Assembly: GCA_021731245.1 (NCBI GenBank)
Contig: JAKFXT010000008.1
Span: 1,045-65,044, forward strand
Source: Patescibacteria group bacterium
Lineage (GTDB): Bacteria; Patescibacteriota; Minisyncoccia; Phycocordibacterales; JAKFXT01
Direction of reading: 5' to 3'
Length of the DNA stretch: 64,000 bases
The notes beneath the pieces were generated by a model. It ran no database searches. It had not been told where the DNA came from and saw only the letters and a list, made by a program, of their open reading frames with translations. This document shows positions 6,889 through 54,829 of the stretch, piece by piece; position 1 is the first letter of the stretch, and each line of letters opens with the position of its first letter. A program made the translations under genes and the position numbers.

Positions 6889-6929
6889 GAGAAAATAAAT
6901 TTTGGATTAAATATTTTAATTATTTTTTA

Positions 6930-8838: not shown

Positions 8839-9063
8839 TTGTATTCGTGGAGGGCCCCTTTAAATTTAAGACACTAATGACTTAAATTTTAGAGAAGTTT
8901 ACTTTCCGCGATTGGCTAATAATCAATTCCTTAAAACAAAAAAGCTCATGGAGCTTTTCATTAAATTAGCACAATATTTGGGAAATGACAAACCCCGCTA
9001 AGAGCGGGGGTCTGGCCGGCACACAGTCGAGCTGTGCGCCGGCCAGATTTTGCCGGGCTTTTA

Positions 9064-9244: not shown

Positions 9245-9433
9245 ATCAATCTCCTTAGAGGTGGTTGCGAAATAGCATCAAGACCGAAATGGTCCAAAAG
9301 ATGAACTGATGCCATTTAAAATTCTATACCCGTTTTAATTTTATGTAAATTATTTTCTGTGTTTAAAATAAAAAAACCAACCAATCGCGAAGATTGAAGT
9401 CGGTATGTTTCTGAAAGAACTTTAGAGACTTCG

Positions 9434-9481
9434 GCCCGCCACTGGACCCTTAGATCCGGACCCTTAGATCCAGTGGCGGGC
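9434..9481. other. 12-bp perfect hairpin (gcccgccactgg/ccagtggcgggc) whose loop is a tandem 13-nt direct repeat (acccttagatccgg x2)
   Basis: read directly in the 358-nt divergent intergenic region 9316-9673. Confidence 0.4.
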
Positions 9482-9673
9482 AGGCCATCATAATTCCGAG
9501 GATTCCGCGGATCCTTACGAAATTTTAAAATAGAACAAAAGACAGCAAAGCGTTCTTATCACCCAAGCCTAGCAACCCACCAGTGCCTGAAGCGGGAGCC
9601 GCTCTTAAAGTTATATTACTTAATTTAAAAGTCAATTTTTACAAAAACCTTTCGAAGAGTTAAACTGTGCTTC

Positions 9674-10312: not shown

Positions 10313-10337
10313 AGGTTTTTAATAAAAAAGTTTTTTT

Positions 10338-10428
10338 GTTTGCGTTTGAATTACACGTATAATTTTCTGCTGAAAATTTACTCTGCTCGGCTCGCCAGCT
10401 TGTGCAAGGTAATACAAATGCAAACGTG
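10338..10428 (+). repeat. structured intergenic element, family copy B
   Basis: CACGTATAATTTTCTGCTGAAAATTTACTCTGCTCGGCTCGCC...TGCAAGG ~80% identical to copy A over ~58 nt; own outer stem ttgcgtttgaat/atacaaatgcaa. Confidence 0.45.
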
Positions 10429-10817: not shown

Positions 10818-13292
10818 ATGGCGAAAAAGCAGGAAGATTTAAAATCTGAAAAACCAGAAAAAGACGAAGAACGCGGAATAGTTATCCGCGATATTTCTGA
10901 TGAAATGCGAAAGTCTTACTTGGACTACGCAATGTCTGTTATCACATCGCGCGCCCTTCCTGATATTCGTGATGGACTGAAGCCTGTGCATCGCAGAATT
11001 CTTTTTACAATGCATGAAATGGGGCTCGTTGCATCCGCCAAATTAAGAAAGTCCGCTGCGGTAGTGGGAGATGTAATGGGAAAGTATCACCCGCACGGCG
11101 ACTCTGCTATTTATGAGTCTATGGTCAAAATGGCACAAGATTTTACTTTTAGATATCCATTGGTGATTGGACAAGGAAACTTCGGCTCAATTGATGGAGA
11201 TAATGCCGCTGCTATGCGTTATACGGAAGCAAAAATGTCTAAGCTTTCCGCAGAGCTCCTTCGTGATTTGGAAAAAGAAACAGTAGACTTTCGTCTCAAT
11301 TATGACTCCACAAGAAAAGAGCCAAGTGTTTTTCCATCCGCTGTACCGAATCTTTTATTAAATGGAACATTGGGAATTGCAGTTGGTATGGCAACAAATA
11401 TTCCACCGCACAATCTAAAAGAAGTTGTGGAGGCGACCATACATTTAATAGAAAATAAAGAAGCCTCAACTGAAGACCTACTAGAATTTGTTAAAGGCCC
11501 AGATTTCCCAACGGGAGGCATTGCTTACAATCAGACAGATATTTCTCACGCTTATATCAATGGTCGTGGGGGAGTTGTCGTGCGAGGTGTTGCAGACATT
11601 GTGGAGCAAAAAGGAGGGCAATTCCAAATCATTATTACTTCCATTCCATATCGCGTTAATAAATCTGATTTGATAGTTTCTATCGCGGACTTGGTGCGTG
11701 ACAAAAAATTGGAAGGAATAAAAGGAATCCGCGATGAGTCCACAAGAGATATTCGTGTGGTTATTGATTTGAAAAATGGAGTACAACCACAAAAGGTTTT
11801 GAATTTTATATACAAGCACACACAACTTGAAGAAGCTTTCCATTACAACAACGTAGCTTTGGTAAACGGTATTCCGCAGACGCTTTCTCTAAAGGCGATG
11901 CTTCAGGAGTTTATTACCCACAGACAAGAAGTAGTGCGACGCCGAAGTGAATTTGATTTAAGAAAAGCTAAAGACAGAGAACACATTTTGCTCGGTCTTA
12001 AGAAGGCGTTGGACCATATAGATGAAATAGTAAAACTGATAAGAAAGTCTAAGGATGTAGAAACTGCAAAGCTTGGACTCATGAAAGAGTTTAAGTTTTC
12101 TGATCGCCAAGCAGTAGCTATTTTGGAAATGCGTTTGCAGAAATTGGCCGGACTTGAAAGACAGAAAGTAGAAGACGAACTTAAAGAAGTAAAAGCTCTA
12201 ATAGAATTTCTTGAAGACATTTTAAAGAGTGATAAGAAAATGCTTGGAATTATAAAAAAGGAATTACAAGAAATCTCCGAAAAGTATGGTGATGAAAGAA
12301 AAACAAAAATAGTTAAAGGAGGTATCAAGACTTTCTCAATGGAAGATTTGGTGCCGGATGAAGAAACCGTCCTTGTTTATACAGCAGGTGGTTACATAAA
12401 GAGAACAAATCCCGATGAATATAGAAAACAAAAGCGCGGAGGTGTGGGTGTGGTTGATTTAGATACTAAAGAAGAAGATTTTATTACGCAATTTGTAACG
12501 ACGTCCACTCACAGTGACCTACTTTTCTTTACTGATAAGGGAAAGGTTTATCAATTGAAAATGTATGAAGTTCCAGAAGGACGTCGTGCAACGCGCGGTA
12601 AGTCCATTATGAATTTCCTTTCTATTTCATCGGATGAAAAAATAACTTCAATTCTTCCAATAACTAAAGATAATAAGAAGACAAAGTTTTCATTAATGAT
12701 GATTACTAAAGGTGGAGTGGGAAAGAAAGTGGCAGCAGAAAGCTTCCATGATGTGCGCCGAAGCGGAATTATTGCAATACGTCTAGATCAAGGTGACTCT
12801 CTAATTTCTGCAATGCTTGTTGAAAAAGGAGACAGTGTAATTCTAGGAACTAATGATGGTCAGTCTATTCGCTTTGATGAGGCGGACATTCGTGAGATGG
12901 GTCGCGCCGCAGGTGGAGTGCGTGCTATTAAACTCGATAAGAAAGATTTTATTGTAGCTTCCGACGTGGTGCGGAAAGAAACTGCCAAAGACGCAGAACT
13001 TCTTGTAATAAGTTCCAATGGCTACGGCAAGAGAACCTCACTTGATGAATATAAAATACAAAATAGAGGTGGGTCTGGAATAAAGACTATGAAAGTTACT
13101 CCCAAAACAGGAGTTGTTATAACGGGTGCGGTTGTTTGCGGAGAAGAAGCCGAGGTTGTAGCGATTTCTAAGAAAAGCCAAGTTATAAGAATTGATGTAA
13201 AAGAAATTCCCTCACTTAGTCGTGCAACTCAAGGTGTGCGCGTGATGCGTATGCGTGACGGGGATTCCATCGCGTCTCTTATTTGTCTCTAA
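10818..13292 (+). CDS. gyrA: DNA gyrase subunit A
   Basis: [11 protein letters not shown] (active-site Tyr), [17 protein letters not shown] region, C-terminal beta-pinwheel repeats. Confidence 0.95.
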
Positions 13293-16883: not shown

Positions 16884-17570
16884 TCATTTCAGTTTCGCAA
16901 ACCAGAGGAGCTCTTTTTTCGACATGGAGGCGACTTCGAACTTGACGCCGGTGAGTTCGGGTTTTTCTGAAATGAAGCTCGTCCCTGGACGATCCCCATC
17001 AAAGACCCAATTTCTTTCCGGTTTTTCTCCGTCATCGCACAGAATGCCTCGGCTTTTCACCTCGCCCGAACTGTTGAAGCCTCGATAGGCGACACACCCT
17101 CTCTCTTTTCCAGTCAGGCCCTGTTCCCAGGGTCGGGAGTCTATCTGGAAAACAACCAGACTCCCATCTGCAGGCAAGGCTTTCTCGATCCTTGAAATCG
17201 AGACAGCTTTCGGACTTTCACTTTTCCACCAGTCTCGCAGGGATTGACCCCAGGGAGAAAGGAGAAACAGTGATAAAGCAAAGGCCGTAACCGATAGGCA
17301 CCAGCTCCGTCTGATGAAGCTGTTATCGGTAAAGTTGATCAGTGCGGCTGTAGCTGTCGCAATGACGGCTACGTTCAAGGCAAGCCATACTGGTCTCCAG
17401 AGCTCGACGTCGAAGGTATTCTTTTCAAGCAGAGAGTAAGCCACGAGGAGAGATGCGGCGAAGATGATTCCTCCGCCAGCATATACCCCGTACTTTTTCA
17501 CTGTTTGGTAGATTTCCTGACTTCTTTCGACGAGCGCTGGGTCTTTCACACGACTAATTGTTGTAGACAT
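16884..17570 (-). CDS. membrane protein in a GC-rich island (partner of SPFH-like gene)
   Basis: 3-4 TM helices N-terminal, soluble C-terminal domain; GC3-rich codons unlike neighbours. Confidence 0.4.
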   Translation of the reverse strand: MSTTISRVKDPALVERSQEIYQTVKKYGVYAGGGIIFAASLLVAYSLLEKNTFDVELWRPVWLALNVAVIATATAALINFTDNSFIRRSWCLSVTAFALSLFLLSPWGQSLRDWWKSESPKAVSISRIEKALPADGSLVVFQIDSRPWEQGLTGKERGCVAYRGFNSSGEVKSRGILCDDGEKPERNWVFDGDRPGTSFISEKPELTGVKFEVASMSKKELLWFAKLK

Positions 17571-17585
17571 GGATAGCTCCTGATC

Positions 17586-18671
17586 TCAAGCTGTTTTACC
17601 GAAGATTTGCTTAAGGGTGGCCACGGCCGCGTCTGCGCCTTGACCTTGTACCCCGATGATGCTGAGGGAAGCTCTCTCCGCGCTTACTAAAACCGTCTTC
17701 ATCGCGTCGTCGAAGGAAATTTCTTTCCCTCCGTCTTTCTTACTTTCCACGACGAGTCTGTTGGCGGCTCTGCGATATCGCTCCACGACAGCTTCATTGG
17801 TAATCGCTTCCTGTAGAGATTTGTCGATCTCAACATCATTGATTGTTGCAACAAGGATGTTGATGCCATACATCTTTTCTTTTTCACCACGAGCTTTAAC
17901 GCTCGGATCGACTTCTCCTGTCGCCGTCACTCCGGTACCCAAAGCTGTCACGGCAATTTTTTTCAGTTTTTCAATTTCTTGCCTTGTTTCAGCCGGAGTC
18001 AGTTTGCAGATTTCCTTCATCAGGGCCTCTGATACAGATTTGATGAGAGCCTCTTCGATTGCAGACTCATCAACCCCTAGATGTTGAGGAAGTTCGGCAA
18101 GAACTCTGCGAAATTGCAGCAGCCCCTTGATCTTCACCAGGGGGCCAATTTCCTTATCGTTCTCTCCTCTTGTGGGGAAGTCTTCTTCGAAGGAGCGTTC
18201 GGTAAGACGAAGATTGATGTAACGACTTTTCTCCACTTGTTCCCATGGTAGCCGGACGGAAAGTCCCGGTCCGTACACACGCATGTTTCCCGTGAAGTAA
18301 TTCGTCGTGACGAGTCCCGTCCATTCCGTAACCGAGACACTCAGTCCTTCGAAAAATTTGTTGAAGAAAAGAGTGAATAGTCCCAGCCCCAAAAGCCAGC
18401 CATATTGCAGGCCAACAGATGAGAATGAAACTCCCGCAAGTACGATGAAAGCGGAGAGAGCTAAAACCATAAGCAAGATAGCGAAGCTAACTCGCTGGTT
18501 TTGTTGCACATACCACTCATCGCCGAGGGCAAGGGTGTCGTCCACTAAGGGCGACGTAGACCTTTCTGACCAAGACCATGTCGGCCAAGACCAATTTATA
18601 AGTTTCATTTTCTGATTCTCCTCATTGGTTAATTCTGGTTTTTGTCGATGGGAAGAGGCGGAATGCCTCAA
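17586..18671 (-). CDS. SPFH/band-7 (stomatin/prohibitin-like) domain membrane protein in a GC-rich island
   Basis: two N-terminal TM helices, then GLSVRLPWEQVEKSRYINLRLTE, similar to SPFH beta-sheet core; Ala/Glu-rich helical C-term. Confidence 0.4.
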   Translation of the reverse strand: MRHSASSHRQKPELTNEENQKMKLINWSWPTWSWSERSTSPLVDDTLALGDEWYVQQNQRVSFAILLMVLALSAFIVLAGVSFSSVGLQYGWLLGLGLFTLFFNKFFEGLSVSVTEWTGLVTTNYFTGNMRVYGPGLSVRLPWEQVEKSRYINLRLTERSFEEDFPTRGENDKEIGPLVKIKGLLQFRRVLAELPQHLGVDESAIEEALIKSVSEALMKEICKLTPAETRQEIEKLKKIAVTALGTGVTATGEVDPSVKARGEKEKMYGINILVATINDVEIDKSLQEAITNEAVVERYRRAANRLVVESKKDGGKEISFDDAMKTVLVSAERASLSIIGVQGQGADAAVATLKQIFGKTA

Positions 18672-19062
18672 CCCGAACTAAATCGTATCTACCCCTAATA
18701 ATAGCATATTTTATAGTAAAAGTCAAGTGCTAGAAACACAAAAATACGGCTTTATTTAGCCGTATTTTTGTGTAATTTTATTTGCGGTGAACTTGTGGTC
18801 ACAAATATTTCCTCGTCGTCACTAGAAAATTTCGCGACCCCAGCTCGCGATTTCATTTGCTAATGAAATATCGCTCCGCTTCTCACAAACTAAAAACCTC
18901 CCGCAGGGGAGATTTTTTACGTTTGTGAGCAACAATAATTTGTTCGCCGTCGCTCACAAATTTTCCTTACCCGGCCTCACTTATTTTACTTGCTAGTAAA
19001 ATATAGTTCCGGCTCTCACAAGCATGAAAAAATCCCAAGCAGTTGGGATTTGTTTCATCTTG

Positions 19063-19144
19063 TGAGCAAGAGAGGACTCGAACCTCCACCCCTTGCGGGA
19101 CCAGTTCCTAAGACTGGCGCGTATACCAATTCCGCCACTTGCCC
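19063..19144 (-). tRNA. tRNA-Leu (anticodon TAG), long variable arm
   Basis: cloverleaf folded by hand: acceptor GGGCAAG/CTTGCTC, anticodon loop CTTAGGA, T-arm GGTTCGAGTCC. Confidence 0.8.
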
Positions 19145-19291: not shown

Positions 19292-19454
19292 CTATTTTAT
19301 TTTCGGGTGGGGAATCGGTCACAAATAATTTTCTGCTGAAAATTTTCGCGACCCGACAAATAGTGCTTAGGCACTGTTTGTCCGCGCCGTCGCGCTACAA
19401 CTTTCGATTCCCGCCAGCCAAAAATTTATACCCACACAAGGCAGGTATAAATTT

Positions 19455-26700: not shown

Positions 26701-26797
26701 GATATTTTTGCCTTTGCTTTACGCAAAACAAAAATATATCTGCGCCCACGCACAAGTACGAAAAAATCCCAAGAAGTTGGGATTTTATTTCGTCTAG

Positions 26798-26881
26798 TGC
26801 GTCGGGCAGGATTCGAACCTGCGTAGCCCATTGGGCGACAGATTTACAGTCTGTTGCGATTGACCGCTCCGCCACCGACGC
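26798..26881 (-). tRNA. tRNA-Tyr (anticodon GTA), long variable arm
   Basis: acceptor GCGTCGG/CCGACGC, anticodon stem-loop ACAGA-CTGTAAA-TCTGT, T-arm GCAGGTTCGAATCCTGC. Confidence 0.75.
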
Positions 26882-26981: not shown

Positions 26982-28001
26982 TCAACGCCATCTCTTTCTG
27001 AGTATTTTTTCTTCTGTGAAGAAGGCGTCGAACTTTTTTTCAAATGTACCTCCCATCCCAGTCGAGACTCCTCCGAAGGGACCACCAAAGGAAGTGTTCT
27101 GATAAGAATGTGGATTTGTAGTGTTGCCGGTTGGAAATTCCCTATTGAGGTAGCCGAGTGCGACTGCGGGCCCAGCAGAAAGGTTCCTTGGATCCATGAT
27201 GAACGCGATGTTTATGGCCACTCCGCCCTCATGCCTTAAAGAAAAACCGGGCATAAGGCCGATGAACGGCAGCGTTTTATGGATCTCTTTCGTGTAATAG
27301 CTTCCCGCACAAGAGGCTACGGCAGGAGACAAGGAGAAGCCCCATGCTTCAATAAGCGAAACCTCCAACCCAGGGCAAAAGGTTGTAGCCAAACCGTTCT
27401 TGGTGTTTTTCAGGGCGTTGGCTTCAAAGAAAAAATCACTTCCCTCGAAAAGAAAATCCTTTCCGAACTGAATTTTCAGGCCAACTCCCGCGTTTTCTTC
27501 GTTGCAGATTTTTCCTCTTTTTTTGTCGTTTACGCACGGAATGAAATGCTGAGCTGCCCCGAAGGTGTTTAGCGAAACATTCAAGCCGCTAAGAGAGGAA
27601 AATTTCCCAAGCGCACTCCAAGTCGGCTGTGCCAACTCCGGAGGGACCATCATTCCTTGTGCACGTGACAGCAGGCGCCCTTTCATCATGGCTTCAGTTT
27701 GAATCACTACAGATGCTTGGGGATTGAAGCCGGTTTCCCACGCAGAAATTCTTGCGCTGCTAGATGGGAAGTTTCCCGAAAAGGAAACGCGAGTTTCTGT
27801 TTCGGGGGGATTTACTTGTGCAGGTCTCACATCCTGGAACGATGTGGCGTACACAGGCTCGTGATACGTGCCATCATCGGTTCCAATCCCAGCCCCCACT
27901 ATTTCCGGAGGAGGAGGAACGTCGCGCCCATGTTCCATCACGGCACAACCAGACAAAGACAAATTCAGTACGGCAGAAACAAAAGCAATTGTATTTTTCA
28001 C
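26982..28001 (-). CDS. hypothetical lipoprotein (lipobox LSGC) in a GC-rich island
   Basis: signal peptide + Cys lipobox, PPPP linker, Gly/aromatic-rich; GC3-rich codons. Confidence 0.45.
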   Translation of the reverse strand: MKNTIAFVSAVLNLSLSGCAVMEHGRDVPPPPEIVGAGIGTDDGTYHEPVYATSFQDVRPAQVNPPETETRVSFSGNFPSSSARISAWETGFNPQASVVIQTEAMMKGRLLSRAQGMMVPPELAQPTWSALGKFSSLSGLNVSLNTFGAAQHFIPCVNDKKRGKICNEENAGVGLKIQFGKDFLFEGSDFFFEANALKNTKNGLATTFCPGLEVSLIEAWGFSLSPAVASCAGSYYTKEIHKTLPFIGLMPGFSLRHEGGVAINIAFIMDPRNLSAGPAVALGYLNREFPTGNTTNPHSYQNTSFGGPFGGVSTGMGGTFEKKFDAFFTEEKILRKRWR

Positions 28002-28258
28002 ATTCCCTCCGGTCTTTTTGTGGAATTGCGGAAGAAAGCCCCTGACAGGTTCAGATAACTAAAGTGCCAAAGAACCCACCTTAGAGTATGGTGCACCTTT
28101 CATAATTAGTGGTCAATAGAGACAGGAAATATTTAAATTATATAAATTAATAAGACCCTGGTCACGCGTAGCGCGACCAGGGTCAGTTGATTGGGTGCCC
28201 AGGTTACAAGGCACAGCTCAAACAAACGTTTGTGGGGATGAAGCTTGGTGAAGCAACT

Positions 28259-28648
28259 TCAGAAGCTGATGAAGTACGTACCGCCCGATTTGAGCGTGGC
28301 CAGGATGCCGGTCGGAATGACCGTTTCAGCCATGAAGGCGGCAGAAATCCTGGCACAAATCCCGAGAGCCATGATTGCGAGAAGGCTCTCCCGTACAACA
28401 TCGCTCATGATGTAGGACGGATTTCCGCTCCTGAGTGAATCCGGGGAAAGGTGAACGAGGATTTCTTTCGGTCCTTGATCTCTCCATTCCTTGTACGGAA
28501 TCAGTCTTCTCGAGGTGCTGGGGCCGTCCTGGAGATTGGTGACGACGCCCTGCACTTTCTTGCTGAAATCGATTTCTTCCGCCGTCGGAATTGGCACAAC
28601 TTTCTTGGGCGGTCCGCTGTACCTCTTGAACATCTGATGCTCTAGCAT
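28259..28648 (-). CDS. hypothetical protein in same GC-rich island
   Basis: most protein-like of three overlapping frames; hairpin + T-run terminator downstream at ~28150-28185. Confidence 0.3.
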   Translation of the reverse strand: MLEHQMFKRYSGPPKKVVPIPTAEEIDFSKKVQGVVTNLQDGPSTSRRLIPYKEWRDQGPKEILVHLSPDSLRSGNPSYIMSDVVRESLLAIMALGICARISAAFMAETVIPTGILATLKSGGTYFISF

Positions 28649-28770
28649 GTCTTTCCCCCGAAATTGTTTCTACATATAAAGAACTACCCCTGTATCCGGA
28701 ATTTCGTTTCGCTCCGGAATTTTTCAAATATACTCCTAACCAAATTAATGTAAACCCCCTCTATGCACTT

Positions 28771-31913: not shown

Positions 31914-32037
31914 GAATATTATCCTAGCATATGTAACTTCTGTTATACAAAGCGTAACGTCTTTGACTTATTTGTTTTGTAGAAGTAATGTTTTTCCAGA
32001 GCAGTATAAACCAACAAAGGAGCTTGCGATGATGACC

Positions 32038-32403
32038 AAGGTTGTGATTGTTGCGCAAGGAGATCCGCAGAATAAAGAAGCCGACTATTGGCAAATCGCG
32101 CGAAACCTACGCGAGTTGATAGACTCGGTGGATGTCGGCAAAGGTGCACATGAAAGGACTTTCAATGTGCAAATTGTCGGCTCTGAGAAGGATGCTTTAC
32201 TTGAACTTTTGAGCGAGGGCTGCTGGAATGGATGCCTCGTTTTCGTTTCCTCCTACTTCGTTCAACAGGCGGAGATGATTGCCAAGAAGCTCTATCCCAG
32301 GCACAAGGTGCTGGTTTACACTGTCGGCCTTCACCAGGGCTCAGAGCCCCTGCTGATTTCACGGGGTATGCTGGTTCCGGAGAATATCCGCGCTTTTTTC
32401 TGA
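32038..32403 (+). CDS. hypothetical protein in a GC-rich island (ORF-track N-terminal extension from 31678 rejected)
   Basis: RBS AAAGGAG before ATG 32038; TTGACT-17-TAATGT promoter-like at 31963-31991; GC3-rich. Confidence 0.4.
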   Translation, partial: KVVIVAQGDPQNKEADYWQIARNLRELIDSVDVGKGAHERTFNVQIVGSEKDALLELLSEGCWNGCLVFVSSYFVQQAEMIAKKLYPRHKVLVYTVGLHQGSEPLLISRGMLVPENIRAFF

Positions 32404-32430
32404 AGCACACCTATCTTGGAGACGGAAAAT

Positions 32431-38721: not shown

Positions 38722-38814
38722 CCAATTTATATTAAGGGTTTATTACTATTTTGACAAGTAAATTAATAAATGGTTAAATTTTACTTAGTCCAGTTTCCCC
38801 CCGAAGGAAGGAGT

Positions 38815-39087
38815 ATGTTCGAAGAAAGGATTAAATATCGTCCAGCGTTTTGTCATTGTGGTCTGGTGATGGGCCATCCGGATTGCCACCATTCGCAGGC
38901 TTTCCTGCAGGATCTTCTGGATCGTATGGAGGACCTGTATGAAAGAGGGGGTCTCATGTTTGCCGTTACGGCTTTGCTTGGTGAGCACAGTGAAGACCGC
39001 GTCTACACTCAGGACGAGTTGAATCGGGCGATGGTGTTTGCGGTACGAGCCAAGGCCATTAATTTCAGCTTAACGGTGCCAGGATGA
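38815..39087 (+). CDS. small Cys/His-motif protein (CHCx7HPDCHH) in a GC-rich island
   Basis: AGGAG RBS before ATG 38815; TTGACA-17-TTAAAT promoter-like upstream; terminator 39118-39143 (ggcacc-tgcg-ggtgcc + T8). Confidence 0.4.
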   Translation: MFEERIKYRPAFCHCGLVMGHPDCHHSQAFLQDLLDRMEDLYERGGLMFAVTALLGEHSEDRVYTQDELNRAMVFAVRAKAINFSLTVPG

Positions 39088-39145
39088 ATTTTTTCGGAGG
39101 AGGAGGGAGAAGTACGACGGCACCTGCGGGTGCCGTTTTTTTTAT

Positions 39146-41376: not shown

Positions 41377-42240
41377 TTAAATTCTTCTTATTTCTCCCAA
41401 AGATTCTTTGATTAATCCTTTAATCTCCATTACAGAAAGTAAAGTGTTGATTTCGTTTATTGGCATGTTGATAAGAAAAATTAAATCTTCTTTAGATTTT
41501 GGCTCTCTAAGTATTTCTAGAACTTTTATTTCATCCGCTGAACAGTCACTTGGCATACCAAAATCTAATTTTTCCTTATCAGTTTCTATATGAAGTGCCT
41601 CTAGAATATCGTCACTATTTCTTATTGGTGTTGCGCCCAATTTCAAAAGCATATGCGGACCTTCTGATGTTGTAGAAAACATTGAACCAGGGACTGTTAA
41701 AACATCTCTATTGTATTCTGTTGCAAGGCGCGAAGTTATAAGAGTTCCCGACATTTTCTCGGCTTCAATAACAAATGTGGCGTGCGACATGCCCGCCATT
41801 ATTCTATTTCTTTGTGGGAATGTGTAAGGAGCAGCTTTTAAGTTTGGTTCAAATTCAGAAAGTAAAAGACCCCCTGCTTTCAATATTCTTTCGGACAATC
41901 CAAAATTAGTTCTCGGATAAATTACATTTGGGTGAATTCCAGAACCAGGTATGGCAATAGTTTTTATTCCCGCACTTAATGCAAATTCGTGAGCAAGGGC
42001 ATCCATGCCGAGTGCCATACCAGAAATTATTATTACAGGATATCCACGGAGCCCTTGAATTAATTTTTGACAGGCAGATTTTCCATATTCGCTATATTTA
42101 CGTGAGCCGACAATTGCTAAGAATTTATTATTTTCCCAATCGGGGAGAGTCCCACGATAATAAAGTTTTTTAGGTGGGCTCGGTATTTCTTTTAAAAGGG
42201 GAGGGAAATTTTCTGGAGATATTTCTTTTATCTCATTCAT
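41377..42240 (-). CDS. dprA: DNA processing protein DprA/Smf
   Basis: Rossmann-like core AIVGSRKYSEYG, GMALGMDALAH, FPQRNRIMAG; conserved dprA-topA synteny. Confidence 0.85.
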   Translation of the reverse strand: MNEIKEISPENFPPLLKEIPSPPKKLYYRGTLPDWENNKFLAIVGSRKYSEYGKSACQKLIQGLRGYPVIIISGMALGMDALAHEFALSAGIKTIAIPGSGIHPNVIYPRTNFGLSERILKAGGLLLSEFEPNLKAAPYTFPQRNRIMAGMSHATFVIEAEKMSGTLITSRLATEYNRDVLTVPGSMFSTTSEGPHMLLKLGATPIRNSDDILEALHIETDKEKLDFGMPSDCSADEIKVLEILREPKSKEDLIFLINMPINEINTLLSVMEIKGLIKESLGEIRRI

Positions 42241-42282
42241 TAAAAAATTGTATCACGATAAATATTTATCAATTTCCACATA

Positions 42283-42311
42283 TTGACAAATCTGTTTATT
42301 TAGTGTATTAT
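42283..42311 (+). promoter_or_regulatory. consensus-like promoter TTGACA-17-TATTAT, copy 1 of a duplicated ~30-bp promoter module
   Basis: ttgacaaatctgtttatttagtgtattat read directly; ATG 42359 downstream with GAAGGAG RBS. Confidence 0.45.
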
Positions 42312-42343
42312 TAAGGATAGATTTTCCGAATAACGCTTTCTTT

Positions 42344-42811
42344 TTGAAGGAGCAGAAAATGAACAAAATCCTGATTTTCTTGGCGTTTTTCGTCACCCTG
42401 ACCGGCAATGTTCGCGCAAGTGGAGACGGGGACGGTGGCGATGGTGCAGGCGGTGGAGATGGTGGAGGTGCGGGGAAACAAATCCCGCAGTACGAAAAAT
42501 GCTTCACCTTCGGTCGCGCGCTCCTCAACAGGGTGAACGACGAAAAGATTTCCGAGACCGATGCTCTCAAGATTGCCAGGGCAAATGCCACGATTCTCTA
42601 CCCTGGAAAGACCGACCTCTGGGAACCCATCGTCGCGGACGCGGTGAAGTATGCGTACTCGTTGAGTCTTGCGACAGCAAGATCGCAAGTCGGAACCCAG
42701 CTCACCGGCGACTGCGCGCAGGCGGATGCGGTGCTCAAGAGTAAAGACCGCTGGGGAGACAATCAAGGATGGATTTCCAGGGTGGAAAAAGTTCCGGCGA
42801 AAAAGAAGTAA
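42344..42811 (+). CDS. secreted Gly/Asp-rich small protein in a GC-rich island
   Basis: signal peptide (start likely ATG 42359 MNKILIFLAFF), (GD)n/GGG tract, GC3-rich; terminator 42834-42868. Confidence 0.45.
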   Translation: MKEQKMNKILIFLAFFVTLTGNVRASGDGDGGDGAGGGDGGGAGKQIPQYEKCFTFGRALLNRVNDEKISETDALKIARANATILYPGKTDLWEPIVADAVKYAYSLSLATARSQVGTQLTGDCAQADAVLKSKDRWGDNQGWISRVEKVPAKKK

Positions 42812-42866
42812 GTCGCTTGCGAGCGACGGAATAGGCGGGTGTGCAAGCACCCGCCTTTTGTTTTGT

Positions 42867-42895
42867 TTGACAAATTTGTATATTTAGTGTATTAT
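42867..42895 (+). promoter_or_regulatory. consensus-like promoter TTGACA-17-TATTAT, copy 2 (27/30 nt identical to copy 1)
   Basis: ttgacaaatttgtatatttagtgtattat; GGGAGA RBS and ATG 42938 downstream. Confidence 0.45.
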
Positions 42896-42937
42896 TTAAA
42901 ATAGAAGTGTTTCGACAACTAACTATGGGAGATTTCC

Positions 42938-43222
42938 ATGAACGCTGATTTGCTGATTGGAGCTGTTTGCTGGGGCTTGATGTTCCTCTTCTTTTTTTGG
43001 AACATCTTCCACAGGAAGGAGGGCGAGAAATTCCTCACCATTCTGACTGGCGGTGGGGTGTCGGCATACTGTCTGTCCGGGATTTTGTTCCATATCACCT
43101 TCCCGAGCTACTCGACATGGAGCTTCAAGGCCCTCCAGGTTTGGTCCTTGGCCGGCATGCTCATGGTTCTCATCGTGGTGATGATGGCGATTCGTGGCAG
43201 TCCCGAAAGAGGAAGAAACTGA
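42938..43222 (+). CDS. small 3-TM membrane protein in a GC-rich island
   Basis: three hydrophobic helices, GC3-rich; terminator 43242-43279 (agccggttccg...cggaaccggct + T-run). Confidence 0.4.
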   Translation: MNADLLIGAVCWGLMFLFFFWNIFHRKEGEKFLTILTGGGVSAYCLSGILFHITFPSYSTWSFKALQVWSLAGMLMVLIVVMMAIRGSPERGRN

Positions 43223-43304
43223 TATAGAAGGCAACAGGTCGAGCCGGTTCCGCATCACGGAACCGGCTTTTCATTTTTCATACTTATAATTTATACTTGA
43301 CTCC

Positions 43305-44567
43305 ATGCTTGATATTAAGTTTATTCGCGAAAATAAAGATTTAGTTGATTTGGCCGCCAAGAAAAAATTAATTAAGTTTGATGTTTCCAAGTTGCTCGCG
43401 GTGGATGAAAGACGCCGAGAGACTTTGCAATTGGTAGAAAGTAAGCGTGCGGAACAAAATAATACTGCTGGAGCTGTTGCTATAGAAAAAGATATTAATA
43501 AAAGAGGGCAATTAATAGCTGAATCAAAGCTTGTAAAAGAAGAATTACAGAAAGAAGAAGAAAATCTCAAAGAAATAATGAAGGAGTGGCAATCTTTGAT
43601 GCTTCAAGTTCCTAACATTCCCGATATGTCTGTCCCAGATGGAATGAGTGATGCCGATAATAAAGAAATAAAAGTTTGGGGAGAAAAAACAAAATTTGAA
43701 TTCGAGGCGAAGGGGCACACTGATTTAATGCTCTTGCACGATATGATTGATTTAGAACGTGGGGTGAAGGTATCTGGTTTCAGAGGATATTTTTTGAAAA
43801 ATGATGGAGCTCTTTTATCTTTTGCTATTTGGCAATATGCCCAGAGATTTTTTTTGAGTAAAGGATTTTCACCAATAATCTCTCCTTCTTTGATTAGAAG
43901 GGAAGTTCTTATGGGTAGTGGATATTTGCCACAAGGTGAAGAAGATTTGTATAAAACACAAGATGGAGAATATTTGGCGGGAACTGCAGAAGTTGGAATG
44001 ATGGGTTATCACATGGATGAGATTTTAAAAAAAGAAGAATTACCAATAAAGTTTCTAGGTTTTTCTCCGTGTTTCAGACGTGAAGCGGGAGCACATGGTA
44101 AAGATACTAAAGGACTTATTCGAGTGCATGAATTTTATAAATGGGAGCAAGTTATTTTGTGTGAAGCAACGCATGAGGAGAGTGTGAAATATCATGAGTG
44201 GCTAAATAGAAATACAGAAGAATTTATAGAATCTTTAGGCCTTCCATATCACACAGTTATAAATTGTGGAGGGGACTTGGGTCTTGGACAGGTTAAGAAA
44301 TATGATATTGAACTTTGGGTTCCAGGAGAGCAGAAATATAGAGAAATAAGTTCCGCCTCATATTTTCATGATTTTCAGACGCGTCGCCTTAATATTCGTT
44401 ACAAAGACTCTGATGGCACAATGCGTTTTGCGCACTCATTAAATAGCACAGCCATTCCCACTCCTAGAATTCTAGTTTCAATTGTTGAAAATAATCAGCA
44501 AGCAGATGGCAGTATAAAAATTCCTGAAGCCCTTGTGCCGTATTTGGGTAAGGATACAATAAAATAG
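43305..44567 (+). CDS. serS: seryl-tRNA synthetase
   Basis: N-terminal coiled-coil tRNA-binding arm, class II motif 2 FRREAGAHGKDTKGLIRVHEF, motif 3 region. Confidence 0.9.
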   Translation: MLDIKFIRENKDLVDLAAKKKLIKFDVSKLLAVDERRRETLQLVESKRAEQNNTAGAVAIEKDINKRGQLIAESKLVKEELQKEEENLKEIMKEWQSLMLQVPNIPDMSVPDGMSDADNKEIKVWGEKTKFEFEAKGHTDLMLLHDMIDLERGVKVSGFRGYFLKNDGALLSFAIWQYAQRFFLSKGFSPIISPSLIRREVLMGSGYLPQGEEDLYKTQDGEYLAGTAEVGMMGYHMDEILKKEELPIKFLGFSPCFRREAGAHGKDTKGLIRVHEFYKWEQVILCEATHEESVKYHEWLNRNTEEFIESLGLPYHTVINCGGDLGLGQVKKYDIELWVPGEQKYREISSASYFHDFQTRRLNIRYKDSDGTMRFAHSLNSTAIPTPRILVSIVENNQQADGSIKIPEALVPYLGKDTIK

Positions 44568-45398
44568 ATGTTTTCAAGCAAAGGGGTTTTATCCTCTCCG
44601 CAGGCACAAAAGAAAAAAAGAATAAACCGTATTAAGGGCACACTTACGTTTATTTTTATTATTTTAGGTATTAGTTCTGGTCTATACAGTGCTCCAAGGT
44701 ATAAGGAGGTCACAATTTATAATATTTCAATATCAGGAAATGAGGTAATAGAAAAAAATACTATTGAGAATATTGTTTCGGAAAAGCTCTCTGGCAATCA
44801 ATATCTATTTTTCCCTAATAGAAACATTTTTCTCTACCCAAAAACATCTATCATTGATTCAATAAAAAATATAAGCCCCTATATTTTAAGCGCCAATGTT
44901 TCCTTTGGAAATTTCAATAGTATTAATGTGGAAGTAATAGAAAGGAAACCCCACTCTCTATATTGTGGAGCAGAATATAAAAAGGAAGATGGTGTTAGTT
45001 GTTATTTCTTAGATGACAAAGGTTTTATTTTTGATGAAGCTCCTCAATTTTCGGGTAATACTTTTGTTAGATACTTTGGCACAACCACAGAGCCATATAT
45101 TGGCAACACTTACTCAAACACTATTTTATTCCAAACACTCTCTCGTTTTATAGATAATTTGAAAGAAAAAGGATTAGATGTGGTTTCTGTGCGCATTATT
45201 TCACCTGATGAGATTTTATTTTATCTAGATACTGGAAGTAAATTGATTATTTCTGAAAAAACAGACTATAACAAAGTCATTACTTATATTGCAGACATAA
45301 TGACAAGTGCTGATTTTAAAGGAAAAGATGAAAACGGGAAATTAAATGTTTCTTATGTAGATTTTCGTTTCGGTAACAAAATATTCTACAAAAAATAA
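44568..45398 (+). CDS. FtsQ/DivIB-like POTRA-domain membrane protein (tentative)
   Basis: N-terminal TM then V.I.ISGNEVIEKNTIENIV...INVEVIERKPH pattern resembling FtsQ POTRA; not adjacent to ftsA/Z. Confidence 0.35.
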   Translation: MFSSKGVLSSPQAQKKKRINRIKGTLTFIFIILGISSGLYSAPRYKEVTIYNISISGNEVIEKNTIENIVSEKLSGNQYLFFPNRNIFLYPKTSIIDSIKNISPYILSANVSFGNFNSINVEVIERKPHSLYCGAEYKKEDGVSCYFLDDKGFIFDEAPQFSGNTFVRYFGTTTEPYIGNTYSNTILFQTLSRFIDNLKEKGLDVVSVRIISPDEILFYLDTGSKLIISEKTDYNKVITYIADIMTSADFKGKDENGKLNVSYVDFRFGNKIFYKK

Positions 45399-45416
45399 AA
45401 CAAGCGGAAGTCTACA

Positions 45417-45710
45417 TCAACTTCCGCTTTTCCTCAAAAGATTAAAAAGATTATAGAAACATTCGTATATAGCGATTTCGCTTGAGGCGCCTACTCCAAA
45501 GCATTTTTCAGGGTGGAATATTTGGGCAACTATAATTCTCCTTTTTTGCTTGTTAATCGAGAATTCCTGTGTAGATATGTAGACAAGGGTTGTCTGTCTC
45601 GATCTCAGTGGTTCAGCGGATCCCGACCTGATCACAGTTCCTTTTGGAACAGGTATGACCCCCTCGTACTCAAAAGCTTCCTTCAAGATTTCGTTCATTG
45701 TCTCTCCCAA
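45417..45710 (-). CDS. hypothetical protein
   Basis: ORF only; bidirectional hairpin terminator at 45399-45416 (aagcggaagt...acttccgctt). Confidence 0.25.
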   Translation of the reverse strand: MGETMNEILKEAFEYEGVIPVPKGTVIRSGSAEPLRSRQTTLVYISTQEFSINKQKRRIIVAQIFHPEKCFGVGASSEIAIYECFYNLFNLLRKSGS

Positions 45711-45774
45711 GGTACAGTTTCTTCTTTATACAATCACAAAGCATTATTTCTATCAAATTTAGCTTTGTGTTAAT

Positions 45775-46734
45775 GTGCATTTTGTAATGAGTAATTTTTG
45801 GGAAAAGTTGAATAAGCCATTTTTTGTTTTAGCTCCGCTTGCTGATGTTACGGATGCGGCCTTTCGTCGTGTCATTGCAAAGTATGGAAAGCCGGATGTC
45901 CTCTGGACCGAATTCGTTTCCGCGGATGGGCTCATGAGTCCGGGGCGTGAAGTTTTGCTAAATGATTTGAAATATACAGAAGGGGAGCGTCCGATTGTTG
46001 CACAACTTTTTTCAGGACACCCAGAGAAAATGTTTGGCGCGGCCAAGCTCTGTAAAGAATTAGGATTTGATGCAATTGATATAAATATGGGTTGTCCTGA
46101 TAAATCCATAGAAAAACAATGTGCGGGGGCGGCTTTAATAAAAAACCCAGAGTTAGCCAAAGAAATAATTCGTGCCGCTAAGAGTGGCGCGGAAGGACTT
46201 CCTATTTCCGTTAAAACTCGTGTGGGTTACAACAAAGATGAAATATATACTTGGATTCGCTCTCTTCTTGAAGAAGATTTGGCAGTACTAACAATTCATG
46301 CGAGAACCAGAAAAGAAATGTCTCTTGTTCCTGCGCGATGGGAAGATGTCGCAAGAGTTGTGAAATTACGAGATGAAATGAAAAAGAAAACTTTGATAAT
46401 TGGAAATGGGGATGTAAAAAATTTAGATGATACACGCGAAAAAGCAAAAACAAGTGGAGCCGATGGAATAATGCTAGGGCGGGCTATTTTTGGTAACCCA
46501 TGGTTATTTTCTGAAAAAGTGCCGGATATAAAAGAAAAATTATCTGTAATGGTGGAACATACAAAACTTTTTGAAGAATTGTTGGGGGGTATAAAAAGTT
46601 TTGCCATTATGAAAAAACATTACAAAGCCTATGTAAACGGTTTTGATGGAGCTAAAGAATTACGTATGAAATTAATGGATTGTAATAATGCCACTGAAAT
46701 AGAAACTATTGTAAATGAATTTTTAAAAGGGTAG
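45775..46734 (+). CDS. dus: tRNA-dihydrouridine synthase
   Basis: TIM-barrel Dus motifs LAPLADVTD, DINMGCPDK (catalytic Cys), HARTR. Confidence 0.85.
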   Translation: MHFVMSNFWEKLNKPFFVLAPLADVTDAAFRRVIAKYGKPDVLWTEFVSADGLMSPGREVLLNDLKYTEGERPIVAQLFSGHPEKMFGAAKLCKELGFDAIDINMGCPDKSIEKQCAGAALIKNPELAKEIIRAAKSGAEGLPISVKTRVGYNKDEIYTWIRSLLEEDLAVLTIHARTRKEMSLVPARWEDVARVVKLRDEMKKKTLIIGNGDVKNLDDTREKAKTSGADGIMLGRAIFGNPWLFSEKVPDIKEKLSVMVEHTKLFEELLGGIKSFAIMKKHYKAYVNGFDGAKELRMKLMDCNNATEIETIVNEFLKG

Positions 46735-46778
46735 TCTGAAGTAAATTTGTTCCCAAGGGAGGTCTCAGTGGCTTATGG

Positions 46779-47091
46779 TTTCGTGTGTTCCCGTTGCGGA
46801 AGTGTCGAGGGTGTGCACGGATTTGAGCCTGATGAGGATGGCTCAAAACGCTTGAGTGCATATCGCTCCAATCTCAACTCCTGTCCTGGCTTCAAGTACA
46901 AGAGAAAAGATGAGAGATTGGCTGTACACGCATACTCATGGTGTCCAACCAGTACTTTTCCTAGAGAAATACTCTTGAGAGATCAGAGACGGCAATATGG
47001 AGGAAAAAAAATTAAACACATCAACCACTCAGTTACAGCAATTTTGTTCTTCAGCGGGGGTCGCAGTGCGGTGGTCGACATCGGCTCGTAG
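46779..47091 (+). CDS. small Cys-rich (CxxC) hypothetical protein in a GC-rich island, GTG start
   Basis: AAGGGAGG RBS before GTG 46779; terminator 47103-47136 (gggcgc...gcgccc + T-run). Confidence 0.35.
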
Positions 47092-47201
47092 TTTTTGGGG
47101 TGGGGCGCTTGAAACATGGCGCCCTTTCTTTTTGTCTTGTAAAACTTTTTTTAAAGTAGTTTAATAGCCTTGACTGAACATTCACAAAGAAAGGACAAAG
47201 G

Positions 47202-47597
47202 ATGTTTCAACAAAGCGATTTCCCCACCCCTCGAATACTGGGTCTTGCGTGGGCAACGGCTTTTTCCATGGACAGAGAAGTCGAAAGAATTATTTCTTCC
47301 TGGAATGACGGTAAAGCCAAGATTTCGTTCATGCAGTTGGTGAACTCTAAGCCTTTTGGCCCCCTTGCTTTTGATGCCATGCTTGAATCTCTGAACCCGG
47401 ACGTTACCGCTACACTGCGAAACTTAGTCAAAAAAGATTTGAACAAGAAACTCTGGGTCGTGTATTGCAAACTAAAAGCAGAAAAAGGTCTACGTAGGCC
47501 ACCAACCTTCAATCCATTGACCTTTCTCCACGCCTGTACTTTGGACCCAGCCATTTTTTCTTATCAAGCTGAAGAGTATTGCGTGCAGGAAGTTTGA
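47202..47597 (+). CDS. hypothetical protein in a GC-enriched island
   Basis: ORF with AAGGA RBS; terminator 47598-47632 (agtgcgcc...ggcgcact + TTTTGTTT). Confidence 0.35.
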   Translation: MFQQSDFPTPRILGLAWATAFSMDREVERIISSWNDGKAKISFMQLVNSKPFGPLAFDAMLESLNPDVTATLRNLVKKDLNKKLWVVYCKLKAEKGLRRPPTFNPLTFLHACTLDPAIFSYQAEEYCVQEV

Positions 47598-47660
47598 AGT
47601 GCGCCCCGACACCAAGGGCGCACTTTTTGTTTGGGGGATTTTTTCAGATATACTAGTGCA

Positions 47661-48703: not shown

Positions 48704-48733
48704 TATTCTGATATTCTGCAGAATATCAGAATA
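48704..48733. repeat. 30-bp perfect palindrome tattctgatattctgcagaatatcagaata, copy 1 (between dnaX stop and ArsR start)
   Basis: read directly; identical copy at 49005-49034. Confidence 0.7.
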
Positions 48734-48746
48734 GATAAATGAGTTT

Positions 48747-49013
48747 ATGAAAACCAGTAAGCAACTAGAAAGATATTTCAAAGGTGCAGCAAATCATTGG
48801 CGCATTTCCATATTGTTATTAGTCGACAAACAAGAGGGCGTTACAGTAGAGGGTATTGCGGATAATTTGAATGGAAATTTAAAAACAATTTCTCAACACA
48901 CAAGGTCTTTGGTTCATGCTGGGTTACTTAATAAAAAATATAAAGGTAACAGAGTTAATCACACTCTATCTCCTTATGGAAAAATGTTTTTACGCTTCAT
49001 AAAACTATTCTGA
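48747..49013 (+). CDS. ArsR/SmtB-family winged-helix transcriptional regulator
   Basis: HTH region RISILLLVDKQEGVTVEGIADNLNGNLKTISQHTRSLVHAGLL matches ArsR-type wHTH; 88 aa. Confidence 0.6.
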   Translation: MKTSKQLERYFKGAANHWRISILLLVDKQEGVTVEGIADNLNGNLKTISQHTRSLVHAGLLNKKYKGNRVNHTLSPYGKMFLRFIKLF

Positions 49014-49034
49014 TATTCTGCAGAATATCAGAAT
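49005..49034. repeat. 30-bp perfect palindrome, copy 2 (overlaps ArsR stop; followed by TAGTTTTAT, terminator-like)
   Basis: identical to 48704-48733. Confidence 0.7.
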
Positions 49035-49124
49035 AGTTTTATGGCAATTGGGAAGACAAGAGATTGAGGAAAAGAGGTTTTTGTTGTAAATTAGTTAAGT
49101 TTTGCAAAGTTTCGTGTTTAGAGC

Positions 49125-54466: not shown

Positions 54467-54829
54467 TCAGGCGGCTTTTTTCTCTCCTTTTTGATCTTCA
54501 CGCTCAAATTCTCGTTCCATCTCTTCTTCCATGTCCCGAAGATCTTTGGGACACACAGGGTCGTGTCTCTTTGTCACGAAGAAGTGGGGTTTTTCATTTA
54601 GCTTTTTTTCTACCCAAATCTCGCAGCTATACCACTCTCCAGCGTGGATTCCTTCTCTGCAGTAGGAGCAGTCGTGCCATTGCCAGGCCATTCGACTGAA
54701 GTTTCGAAGCAGACGCAGGTACTCTCGATAGGATTCGTCGTTGTCTGCAAAGAGCTCGCCGAATTCACCGGGATTTGGGTCTAAATGAAGTGGAGTTCCC
54801 GCCACTTCATGCACAATGATTTCTTGCAT
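54467..54829 (-). CDS. Cys-rich hypothetical protein in a GC-rich island
   Basis: GC3-rich; motifs WHDCSYC, WYSCE, DPVCP; acidic tail. Confidence 0.35.
   Translation of the reverse strand: MQEIIVHEVAGTPLHLDPNPGEFGELFADNDESYREYLRLLRNFSRMAWQWHDCSYCREGIHAGEWYSCEIWVEKKLNEKPHFFVTKRHDPVCPKDLRDMEEEMEREFEREDQKGEKKAA

Follow-up and report, generated by a model that had tools for sequence, protein, structure and literature searches.

The window analysed here, a stretch of 64,000 nucleotides (positions 1,045 to 65,044 of contig JAKFXT010000008.1, assembly GCA_021731245.1), comes from the low-GC (about 0.37) genome of a tiny, groundwater-type member of the Paceibacteria (Patescibacteria, or candidate phyla radiation, CPR), and the top matches of its SerS protein belong to metagenome-assembled genomes (MAGs) of the Paceibacterota, Kaiserbacteria and Taylorbacteria types (66-75% identity). 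The gap between its divergent genes dprA and serS houses two expression units arranged in tandem, each comprising a predicted promoter (P1 or P2), a 35-40-nt leader with a Shine-Dalgarno (SD) site, a small GC-rich orphan open reading frame (ORF; g1 or g2) and a strong intrinsic terminator (T1 or T2). The coordinates of these features are collected in Table 1. We propose that P1 and P2 are copies of a single core promoter, which was probably duplicated on the spot as the orphan gene g1 was inserted beside the older g2.

Table 1. Features of the dprA-serS gap (the slot) and of its two flanks. Positions are those of the window; promoters, leaders and terminators are predictions; L024 is the closest related genome.
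Feature	Position	Strand	Description
dprA	41377..42240	-	left conserved flank, transcribed away from the slot; Pfam DNA_processg_A, E=1e-64
promoter copy P1	42283..42321	+	-35 TTGACA 42283-42288, 17-nt spacer, -10 TATTAT 42306-42311, TAGA start region 42318-42321
leader of g1	42322..42358	+	SD GAAGGAG 42346-42352; dissimilar to the leaders of g2 and L024
g1	42359..42811	+	150-aa orphan, signal-peptide-like N-terminus, Gly/Asp-rich linker, predicted 4-helix core; lineage-specific
terminator T1	42812..42866	+	small hairpin 42812-42827, 10-bp GC-rich stem-loop 42833-42856, T-tract to 42866
promoter copy P2	42867..42905	+	-35 42867-42872, -10 TATTAT 42890-42895, TAGA 42902-42905
leader of g2	42906..42937	+	SD GGGAG 42927-42931; orthologous to the L024 leader
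g2	42938..43222	+	94-aa small membrane protein (2-3 transmembrane segments), putative resident gene of the slot
terminator T2	43241..43281	+	12-bp stem and T-tract; top terminator-like site in 36-50 kb
serS promoter -10 region (TATAAT / TATACT)	43285..43297	+	7 nt ahead of the ATG; conserved in L024; right edge of the slot
serS	43305..44567	+	right conserved flank; Pfam Seryl_tRNA_N and tRNA-synt_2b

The first 30 nucleotides of the two promoter copies (42283-42312 and 42867-42896, both on the + strand and 584 bp apart) are identical at 28 of 30 positions, the mismatches being at position 10 (C/T) and position 14 (T/A). In register, the likeness extends over 39 nt (34/39, 87%) and ends at a common ...ATAGA (42321 / 42905). 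A reading made from the letters of the window only (the sequence-only reading) had placed both copies exactly; it had counted 27 identities out of 30, one too few, and had stopped short of the full repeat. Its description of them as textbook TTGACA-17-TATTAT promoters proved right, since the hexamers of each copy agree with TTGACA-17-TATAAT at 11 of 12 bases. Both copies rank within the top three promoter-like sites of the 36-50 kb region and have the hexamers, the spacing (16-18 nt) and the position and orientation relative to a gene start that characterize sigma-70-type promoters; transcription would thus be predicted to start near 42319 and 42903. When the 64-kb window was scanned for the 30-mer, two matches with at most three mismatches were found, versus 0.00 expected (100 shuffles), and a Hamming scan showed nothing above 20/30 beyond P1 and P2. 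The ribosome-binding sites and ATGAAC starts announced by the sequence-only reading at about 45-55 nt downstream are present, with the SD 6 nt ahead of the ATGAAC start in both genes, and the distance from the end of the 30-mer to the ATG is only 46 nt (g1) and 41 nt (g2), that from the end of the -10 box being 47 and 42 nt.

Outside of these 39 nt, the two units have nothing in common. No similarity is shared by P1 and P2 upstream of the -35 box; the comparison of the two untranslated leaders gave z=0 and that of the remaining parts of the two units z=-0.4 (local alignment versus shuffles), and the leaders, coding regions and terminators all scored between z=-0.4 and 1.0. This comparison shows that only the predicted core promoter was duplicated, and it bears out two further points of the sequence-only reading, namely that the promoter was reused independently of the coding sequence and that its copies precede different, unrelated GC-rich small genes (GC at third codon positions, GC3, of 0.63 for g1 and 0.72 for g2, which looks foreign next to 0.25-0.27 in dprA, serS and topA). 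We regard it as rather likely that a single native sigma-70-type core promoter, as a module of 39 nt, is present here in two copies, P1 and P2.

Both g1 and g2 are + frames with a codon-position bias of the coding type, the first position being purine-rich in g1 and the second T-rich in g2. The N-terminus of g1 resembles a signal peptide (MNKILIFLAFFVTLTGNVRA, followed by SG), and its residues 21-40 consist of Gly and Asp to 80%. Its sole match is itself, among 5.8e9 clusters (k-mer-seeded HMMER) and 1.84e9 representatives (full HMMER). A PDB sequence search yielded none either, and its single-sequence AlphaFold model (pLDDT 57) retrieved no PDB match at E<0.6 with Foldseek. The g2 protein, which displays two strongly hydrophobic segments and a weaker one, has no homologues by k-mer-seeded HMMER, and neither protein is matched in Pfam, PHROGs, PADLOC or NCBIfam. 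A plain reading would be that g1 and g2 encode a secreted or surface protein and a small membrane protein, respectively, of the envelope of an episymbiont. The T1 terminator has a 10-bp stem (7 GC pairs) followed by TTTTGTTTTGT (core hairpin, -19.9 kcal/mol according to ViennaRNA), and the end of its T-tract at 42866 directly abuts the -35 box of P2, while T2 has a 12-bp stem (8 GC pairs) followed by TTCATTTTTC (-22.7 kcal/mol); both have the GC-rich hairpin, the direct T-run and the location just past a stop codon that are typical of intrinsic terminators. Over the window, Rfam recognized tRNAs only, hence no riboswitch or small RNA in the leaders. Searched by blastn against collections of phages and plasmids, the slot as a whole returned nothing meaningful, and neither the cargo nor the promoter has the phage or plasmid similarity that a prophage or plasmid remnant would display.

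The closest genome, L024, is a MAG from the Hainich aquifer (protein identities of 90% for TopA, 85% for Dus, 77% for FtsQ and 75% for DprA). Its flanks are collinear with those of the window at 73-82% DNA identity, and the similarity breaks exactly over 42263-43264, the blastn match resuming at 43265. The dprA-serS gap of L024 measures 584 bp and contains a single unit made of a promoter (TTGACAGATGTGTCTATTTGATGTATTAAG, at 5492), a leader, a 111-aa ORF with three transmembrane segments and a terminator. This promoter, which recurs across three samples, agrees with the promoter pattern at 23 of the 26 specified positions (the background of 917 kb of related loci offers 18/26 at most) and with the window copies at 23/30 positions, 12/17 in the spacer. 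It occurs in the same gap and the same orientation as P1, at about 75 nt from the dprA start versus 42 nt for P1, and the predicted promoter P1 sits at the presumed ancestral place beside dprA. The leader of g2 (TTCGACAACT...GGAGATT..ATGAAC) aligns to that of L024 (TTCGAAAACT...GGAGATT..ATGAAC) with z=3.7 (7/1000 shuffles). As L024 has the promoter at the same place, together with the leader of copy 2, this promoter is native to the locus. The alignment shows the putative promoter P2 and its leader to be orthologous to the promoter and leader of L024, and the downstream unit (P2, leader, g2 and T2) to be the presumed resident. In turn, g1 is absent from L024, where the 545 bp that separate the repeats (the g1 leader, g1 and T1) have no counterpart. 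Because P1 and P2 are 28/30 identical to each other versus 23/30 to L024, and share five states that differ in L024 (A7, A20, G21, T29 and T30), the duplication is younger than the split between the two lineages, barring gene conversion. A likeness between T1 and the L024 terminator with swapped arms (CACCCGC / GCGGGTG) was treated as a possible coincidence. Next to the slot, the SerS protein of L024 (6001-7260) is a mosaic with respect to that of the window, residues 1-115 being 90% identical and the catalytic part 62%, whereas the catalytic part of the window SerS is 75-82% identical to those of far more distant genomes; this suggests that the 3' two-thirds of serS, beside the variable slot, were replaced in L024 or evolved at an accelerated rate.

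In a broader survey, the order topA-dprA/serS-ftsQ-dus (the slash marking the gap) was kept in 78 of 80 species-level Paceibacteria loci, and the dprA-serS gap, with a median of 125 bp over 78 species genomes, is mostly devoid of ORFs. Three loci with DprA proteins 70-74% identical to that of the window (L083, L084 and L085) have one or two small ORFs each in the gap, unrelated to one another and to g1 and g2. Similarly to these, they have a promoter-like site ahead of them and a GC-rich hairpin with a T-run behind, and their GC3 (0.42-0.63) exceeds that of the dprA gene of their host (0.37-0.43); the P promoter was not found in any of the three. The dprA-serS region of this subclade is probably a slot for orphan genes of fast turnover. 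The flanking genes dprA and serS appeared to be leaderless and devoid of an SD, with a TACAAT box on the - strand (42247-42252) 6 nt from the dprA ATG and a TATACT box (43292-43297) 7 nt from the serS ATG; these leaderless-type -10 boxes are kept in L024, and the GC-rich orphans have 35-40-nt leaders with a GGAG-type SD.

The search for further copies of the promoter covered the 64-kb window, 20.9 kb of L024, 917 kb of related loci, GTDB species genomes, JGI/ENA metagenomes and IMG/VR, the GTDB species genomes being searched with the near-exact 30-mer only. Neither an exact nor a near-exact match to the 30-mer was found in the GTDB species genomes, the JGI/ENA metagenome contigs or IMG/VR. A relaxed 23-base pattern gave three matches in the metagenomes, namely the L024 contig, L088 and L086, the last of which lies in eukaryote-like AT-rich DNA and was dismissed as chance, and no match in IMG/VR; the 15 matches of a 17-base sub-pattern in IMG/VR all lack a -35 box and were also taken as chance. 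L088 is a 1876-bp contig (ERZ1292645) from the Hainich well H14, and its copy, TTGACAAATATGTATATTTAGTGTATTAAA, is identical to P2 at 27/30 positions (16/17 in the spacer), i.e., closer to the window copies than the orthologous copy of L024. It has a divergent 111-aa orphan on one side and another GC-rich ORF (MTTLKLTTAVKRRF...) on the other, is located downstream of a fragment of the tRNA_SAD type found in alanyl-tRNA synthetase, and shares nothing with the window apart from the promoter. The GC3 of its host housekeeping DNA (0.46 versus 0.25-0.29 in the window) indicates a different host. Four copies are thus known in total, two in the 64 kb of the window at one locus, one in the 20.9 kb of L024 and one in L088, and apart from the latter the 917 kb of related sequence yielded none at any other locus. 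Over these four copies, 23 of the first 30 positions, most of the spacer among them, do not vary, and the variation falls mainly on a few sites, such as position 10 (C, T, G and A) and position 14 (T, A, C and A), which suggests that the spacer may be constrained too, possibly as an operator. The promoter of the operon at 17586-18671 shares TATTATTAnGGnTAGAT with P1, but its spacer matches at 5/17 positions only; since TATTAT-N6-TAGA looks like a general strong-promoter consensus in this genome, it was not counted as a member of the family.

The genes present in the 33-51 kb region are miaA, peroxiredoxin, parB, relA/spoT, topA, dprA, serS, ftsQ and dus, together with those of a DNA polymerase III clamp-loader subunit, an ArsR-type helix-turn-helix (HTH) protein, a leucine-rich repeat protein and a DUF218 protein; there is no integrase, transposase or other recombinase among them, and no terminal or inverted repeats were seen at the two units. 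The dispersed mobile 30-mer envisaged by the sequence-only reading was not borne out, there being only two copies in 64 kb, one in L024 and none in IMG/VR. As for its suggestion of a mobile cassette boundary or a recurrent capture of promoters, the locus itself argues for a local duplication with a lineage-specific insertion, and not for any known type of cassette boundary, while the L088 copy keeps the idea alive: looking for the promoter beyond the window, as that reading had advised, uncovered one copy at the same locus (L024) and one at an unrelated locus (L088). The L088 copy weakly suggests a movement between loci or genomes, for which it is the sole evidence.

Several other explanations of the repeat were weighed. 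The source being a MAG, with abrupt GC shifts at the junctions, one may think of a chimeric assembly, or else of an AT-rich repeat arisen by chance and unrelated to a promoter. The Logan contigs of two runs (SRR10388253 and SRR10388252) match both promoter copies and the covered junctions base for base, the T2/serS junction falling beyond both contigs, and this agreement of two independent assemblies rules out a chimera, just as the two differences between P1 and P2 rule out a collapsed repeat. The repeat is moreover conserved in L024, in three samples, and in L088, no match is expected by chance, and each copy is in the right place with respect to its SD, start codon and terminator; an artefact or a non-functional repeat is therefore hardly credible. 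It is also very improbable, and was rejected for want of any similarity beyond the 39 nt, that a whole unit was duplicated in tandem long ago and that its genes diverged past recognition while the promoters were conserved. The genes of such slots do change very rapidly: the same promoter and leader precede g2 and the L024 ORF, the proteins of which have no significant similarity, and the orthologues found in slot A (see below) share only a short Cys/His motif (z=8). Furthermore, both g1 and g2 start with ATGAAC and encode a hydrophobic N-terminus. However, their leaders, coding regions and terminators retain no residual similarity, they differ in length (150 versus 94 aa) and architecture (secreted versus membrane), and a whole-unit duplicate younger than the split from L024 should have retained leader similarity, knowing that the g2 leader is still recognizable across that split. 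The 30-39 nt with their spacer might also be the site of a regulator or of a special sigma factor, kept alike by the co-regulation of g1 and g2, for instance as a secreted protein with its membrane partner. This would account for the confinement of the variation to a few positions and for the conservation of the promoter in L024 when the nearby coding DNA is only 73-82% identical and the other intergenic DNA cannot be aligned, and the spacer does contain the direct repeats TGTnTAT / TGTATTA, 11 nt apart, while a palindrome, ACA-N4-TGT, overlaps the -35 box. Yet constraint cannot produce spacers identical at 15/17 positions in unrelated DNA, so that common descent would still be needed and the operator adds to the duplication instead of replacing it; no candidate regulator was identified, and one or two copies per sampled stretch are few for a regulon. 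As a full explanation, a shared operator is quite improbable.

The alternative that deserves most attention is a portable promoter cassette, in which the 39-nt promoter would come from a pool of self-contained units (promoter, SD, ORF and terminator) capable of moving from one locus, or one Paceibacteria genome, to another, P1 and P2 being the promoters of two independently acquired cassettes or the outcome of the integration of one cassette by crossover in a shared promoter, and hence marks of cassette boundaries. It is consistent with the L088 copy, which surpasses the orthologous copy of L024 in its likeness to P2 and stands at an unrelated locus ahead of a different GC-rich ORF in another host, with the sharp boundaries of the module in all three contexts, with the different cargo found in every relative, and with the GC-rich islands of the window, all of which are autonomous units and ahead of which TTGACN-N16-18-TANNNT sites are enriched. 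On the other hand, there are only four copies in total, with one or two per sampled stretch and the window pair confined to one locus; beyond L024 and L088, no near-exact copy occurs in the GTDB species genomes, JGI/ENA or IMG/VR; neither an integrase or transposase, nor inverted or terminal repeats, nor phage or plasmid similarity accompany it; the promoter is inherited vertically at the locus together with its leader; and other islands use other promoters, such as that of the 17586 operon (spacer 5/17). On balance, we consider a portable cassette unlikely.

We therefore favour, as the more probable history, the insertion of a new orphan gene beside an older one with local duplication of the native promoter, rather than a mobile cassette, which is not demonstrated. 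According to this scenario, g1 and T1 would have entered the lineage after its split from L024. As transcription would not read through T1, the insert must have a promoter on either side, and the duplication may allow the new g1 to be expressed without silencing g2, at the same strength and under the same regulation. The repeat most likely dates from the insertion itself and would be due to recombination inside the promoter of about 39 nt. One candidate route is that incoming DNA with a related promoter, which L088 makes conceivable, was joined by a single crossover or anchored by homology on one side; the other is a slipped or unequal local duplication, and the data are compatible with either.

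A number of points weigh against this insertion scenario. The activity of the promoters and terminators is deduced from their agreement with consensus motifs, and 39 nt is short for RecA-dependent recombination. The resident status was shown for the putative promoter and leader, and not for the coding sequence of g2, the protein of which has no significant similarity to the 111-aa protein of L024 (BLASTP E=1.9; z=1.3); orthology could not be demonstrated at the protein level, only the promoter and leader being orthologous, and the coding part of g2 may have either evolved extremely fast or been replaced beneath a conserved promoter and leader. In addition, the public gene predictions miss both g2 and the membrane ORF of L024 (5584-5919, which corresponds to the L104 gap 9417-10000); an unusual codon usage is the probable reason, and CPR annotations may systematically lack small GC-rich genes of this sort. 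As L083, L084 and L085 are without the promoter, the polarity of the change cannot be rooted by an outgroup, and a deletion between the repeats could have removed a g1-like unit from L024, which is less likely given the states shared by P1 and P2. Finally, the L088 copy in another species is not explained by a purely local history.

The insertion of g1 has a parallel elsewhere in the window. The i47202 unit (a 131-aa orphan, 47128-47616) is absent from L024 and is bounded by an imperfect 17-nt direct repeat (47118-47134 / 47617-47633; GGCGCcCTTTcTTTTTG / GGCGCaCTTTTTGTTTG; z=3.9), which consists of the 3' arm and T-tract of the neighbouring terminator, the single terminator of L024 matching both copies. 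It is, judging from this comparison, a second lineage-specific insertion flanked by a duplicated, presumably regulatory, module. A more daring and rather doubtful proposal is that a pool of autonomous GC-rich orphan units (promoter, SD, ORF and terminator) circulates among groundwater Paceibacteria, and that these units are taken up as DNA, the cells being equipped with dprA and other competence genes, and stitched into a few intergenic slots by recombination inside short shared regulatory modules, such as the 39-nt promoter of the dprA-serS slot and the 17-nt terminator arm at 47118/47617. If such circulation were true, promoters and terminators would also serve as anchors for integration and the slots would expand into tandem arrays, thereby forming a recombinase-free, promoter-anchored analogue of the accretion of integron cassettes.

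Integron cassettes are generally promoterless and bounded by attC sites, and they require the IntI integrase and an attI/Pc platform, none of which is present at the two units. The units described here resemble them as small single-gene units placed in tandem at one site, with a cargo mostly of unknown function, but each has its own promoter and terminator. An integron cassette array was rejected on the grounds that there is no integrase in the 33-51 kb region and that the repeat is a direct repeat of a promoter, not an imperfect palindrome. An insertion sequence or a miniature inverted-repeat transposable element was also discarded, there being just two adjacent direct copies, no transposase, no terminal inverted repeats and no dispersed copies in the window or the related loci. 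The closest known concept is that of the putative mobile promoters (PMPs; Matus-Garcia, Nijveen & van Passel 2012, PMC3488235; Nijveen et al. 2012, PMC3575422), i.e., similar non-coding sequences ahead of non-homologous coding sequences, which were proposed to activate newly acquired or silent genes and for which doublets, about 92% identical, are the commonest family size (PMC3488235, PMC3575422). They are defined by homology within about 100-150 nt upstream of at least two coding sequences of one genome, aligned over 50 nt or more with an identity no lower than 80% (PMC3488235). As in this definition, P1 and P2 form a two-member family with copies 41-46 nt before the starts of genes that are not homologous and have different upstream neighbours (dprA on the other strand for P1, g1 and T1 for P2), and the L088 copy in another species parallels the inter-genomic PMP families. 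By contrast, the best in-register 50-nt window of P1 and P2 has 37/50 identities (74%), below the PMP threshold, the repeat being only 39 nt long at 87%, and, unlike dispersed PMPs, the copies are adjacent (584 bp) and one of them is demonstrably native.

Two other systems bear comparison. Small variable segments at fixed intergenic positions were described by Touzain et al. (2010, PMC2884548), 10-18% of which have flanking repeats, mostly under 30 bp. Similarly to these segments, the dprA-serS slot harbours a variable piece of about 0.5-1 kb at one conserved position, with a content that differs from genome to genome and a short direct repeat as its bounds. The segments were found by comparing strains of one species, whereas we compared species or genera of uncultivated Paceibacteria; furthermore, the flanking repeat is here a predicted functional promoter, and all variants are whole GC-rich expression units set in a genome that is AT-rich. 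The arrays of orphan immunity genes of the type VI secretion system of Vibrio cholerae and the Rhs 3' arrays, for which homology-facilitated illegitimate recombination was proposed (Kirchberger et al. 2017, PMC5361080), also have in common with the slot that a module is added by using a short conserved anchor, the older gene being pushed downstream and kept, to form a tandem array of unrelated small genes. The V. cholerae anchors are, however, coding sequences hundreds of bp long, and the genes that are displaced there become separated from their promoter context; the putative anchor of the slot is a 39-nt promoter that was duplicated, so that both genes keep one, and the recombination mechanism is conjectural here.

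A general question of bacterial genome evolution is how genes that have just arrived, or have just been born, come by a working promoter, and to our knowledge nothing is known experimentally on promoters or gene gain in the CPR. The dprA-serS slot appears to present such an event in a simple form, in that an orphan gene was added with its own terminator, the 39-nt core promoter alone was doubled, and both genes kept the same signal. It is a clean illustration of a new gene gaining a promoter; it is not unprecedented and reveals no new principle. If the promoter does travel between genomes, it would offer a concrete and testable case of a portable promoter. The slot also points to a wider pattern in this clade, in which AT-rich core genes are interspersed with single-gene GC-rich orphan units located in fixed slots and differing between relatives.

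The window, with its GC of about 0.37 and GC3 of about 0.25, is dotted with other GC-rich islands of one or two genes (GC 0.48-0.53; 1127-1741, 8985-9275, 16884-18671, 26982-28727, 31963-32410, 38770-39087, 46747-47597 and 54467-54829). Nearly all of their genes are orphans without a match in Pfam, PHROGs or PADLOC, the exception being a weak match to SPFH/Band 7, and most of the islands inspected end in a terminator made of a hairpin and a T-run. Canonical sites of the form TTGACN-N16-18-TANNNT precede GC-rich DNA in 6 of 11 cases, versus 7.6% of positions (p=6.5e-5); the 11 sites include those at 1127, 18726 (- strand), 31963, 38751, 42283 and 42867. Several of the 11 have TAGA exactly 6 nt past the -10 box, and the core genes seem to use other signals. 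Two slots, at 38782-39104 (slot A) and 45391-45795, contain small GC-rich ORFs of which the L024 counterparts retain traces only (z=8 and 3.3, respectively). The annotated start of the slot A ORF (38770-39087) overlaps its own promoter (38751-38780); the alignment of the L024 orthologue (1909-2118) begins at the internal Met15 (MFEER...C..CGL...P.CHH), which probably places the real start at 38812. Between the two proteins, the Cys/His motif alone is conserved.

Other repeats were observed in the window. Near-perfect 30-nt palindromes (TATTCTGATATTCTGCAGAATATCAGAATA) at 48704-48741 and 49006-49043 flank an 88-aa HTH gene of the ArsR/MarR type (48747-49013), of which they are probably the operator or a bidirectional terminator; L024 has three copies (about 11102-11135, 11403-11454 and 11794-11834). 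A 35-nt repeat, 91% identical between 19017-19051 and 26751-26785 and containing a hairpin (AAAATCCCAAG.AGTTGGGATTT), occurs just downstream of tRNA-Leu (19062-19144) and tRNA-Tyr (26797-26881), both on the - strand, and looks like a duplicated terminator module. A 78-nt intergenic repeat without an Rfam match (73% identity; 6923-7000, 10332-10409 and 19320-19345; core CAC..ATAATTTTCTG.T.AAAATTT) likewise adjoins a tRNA gene, that of tRNA-Lys.

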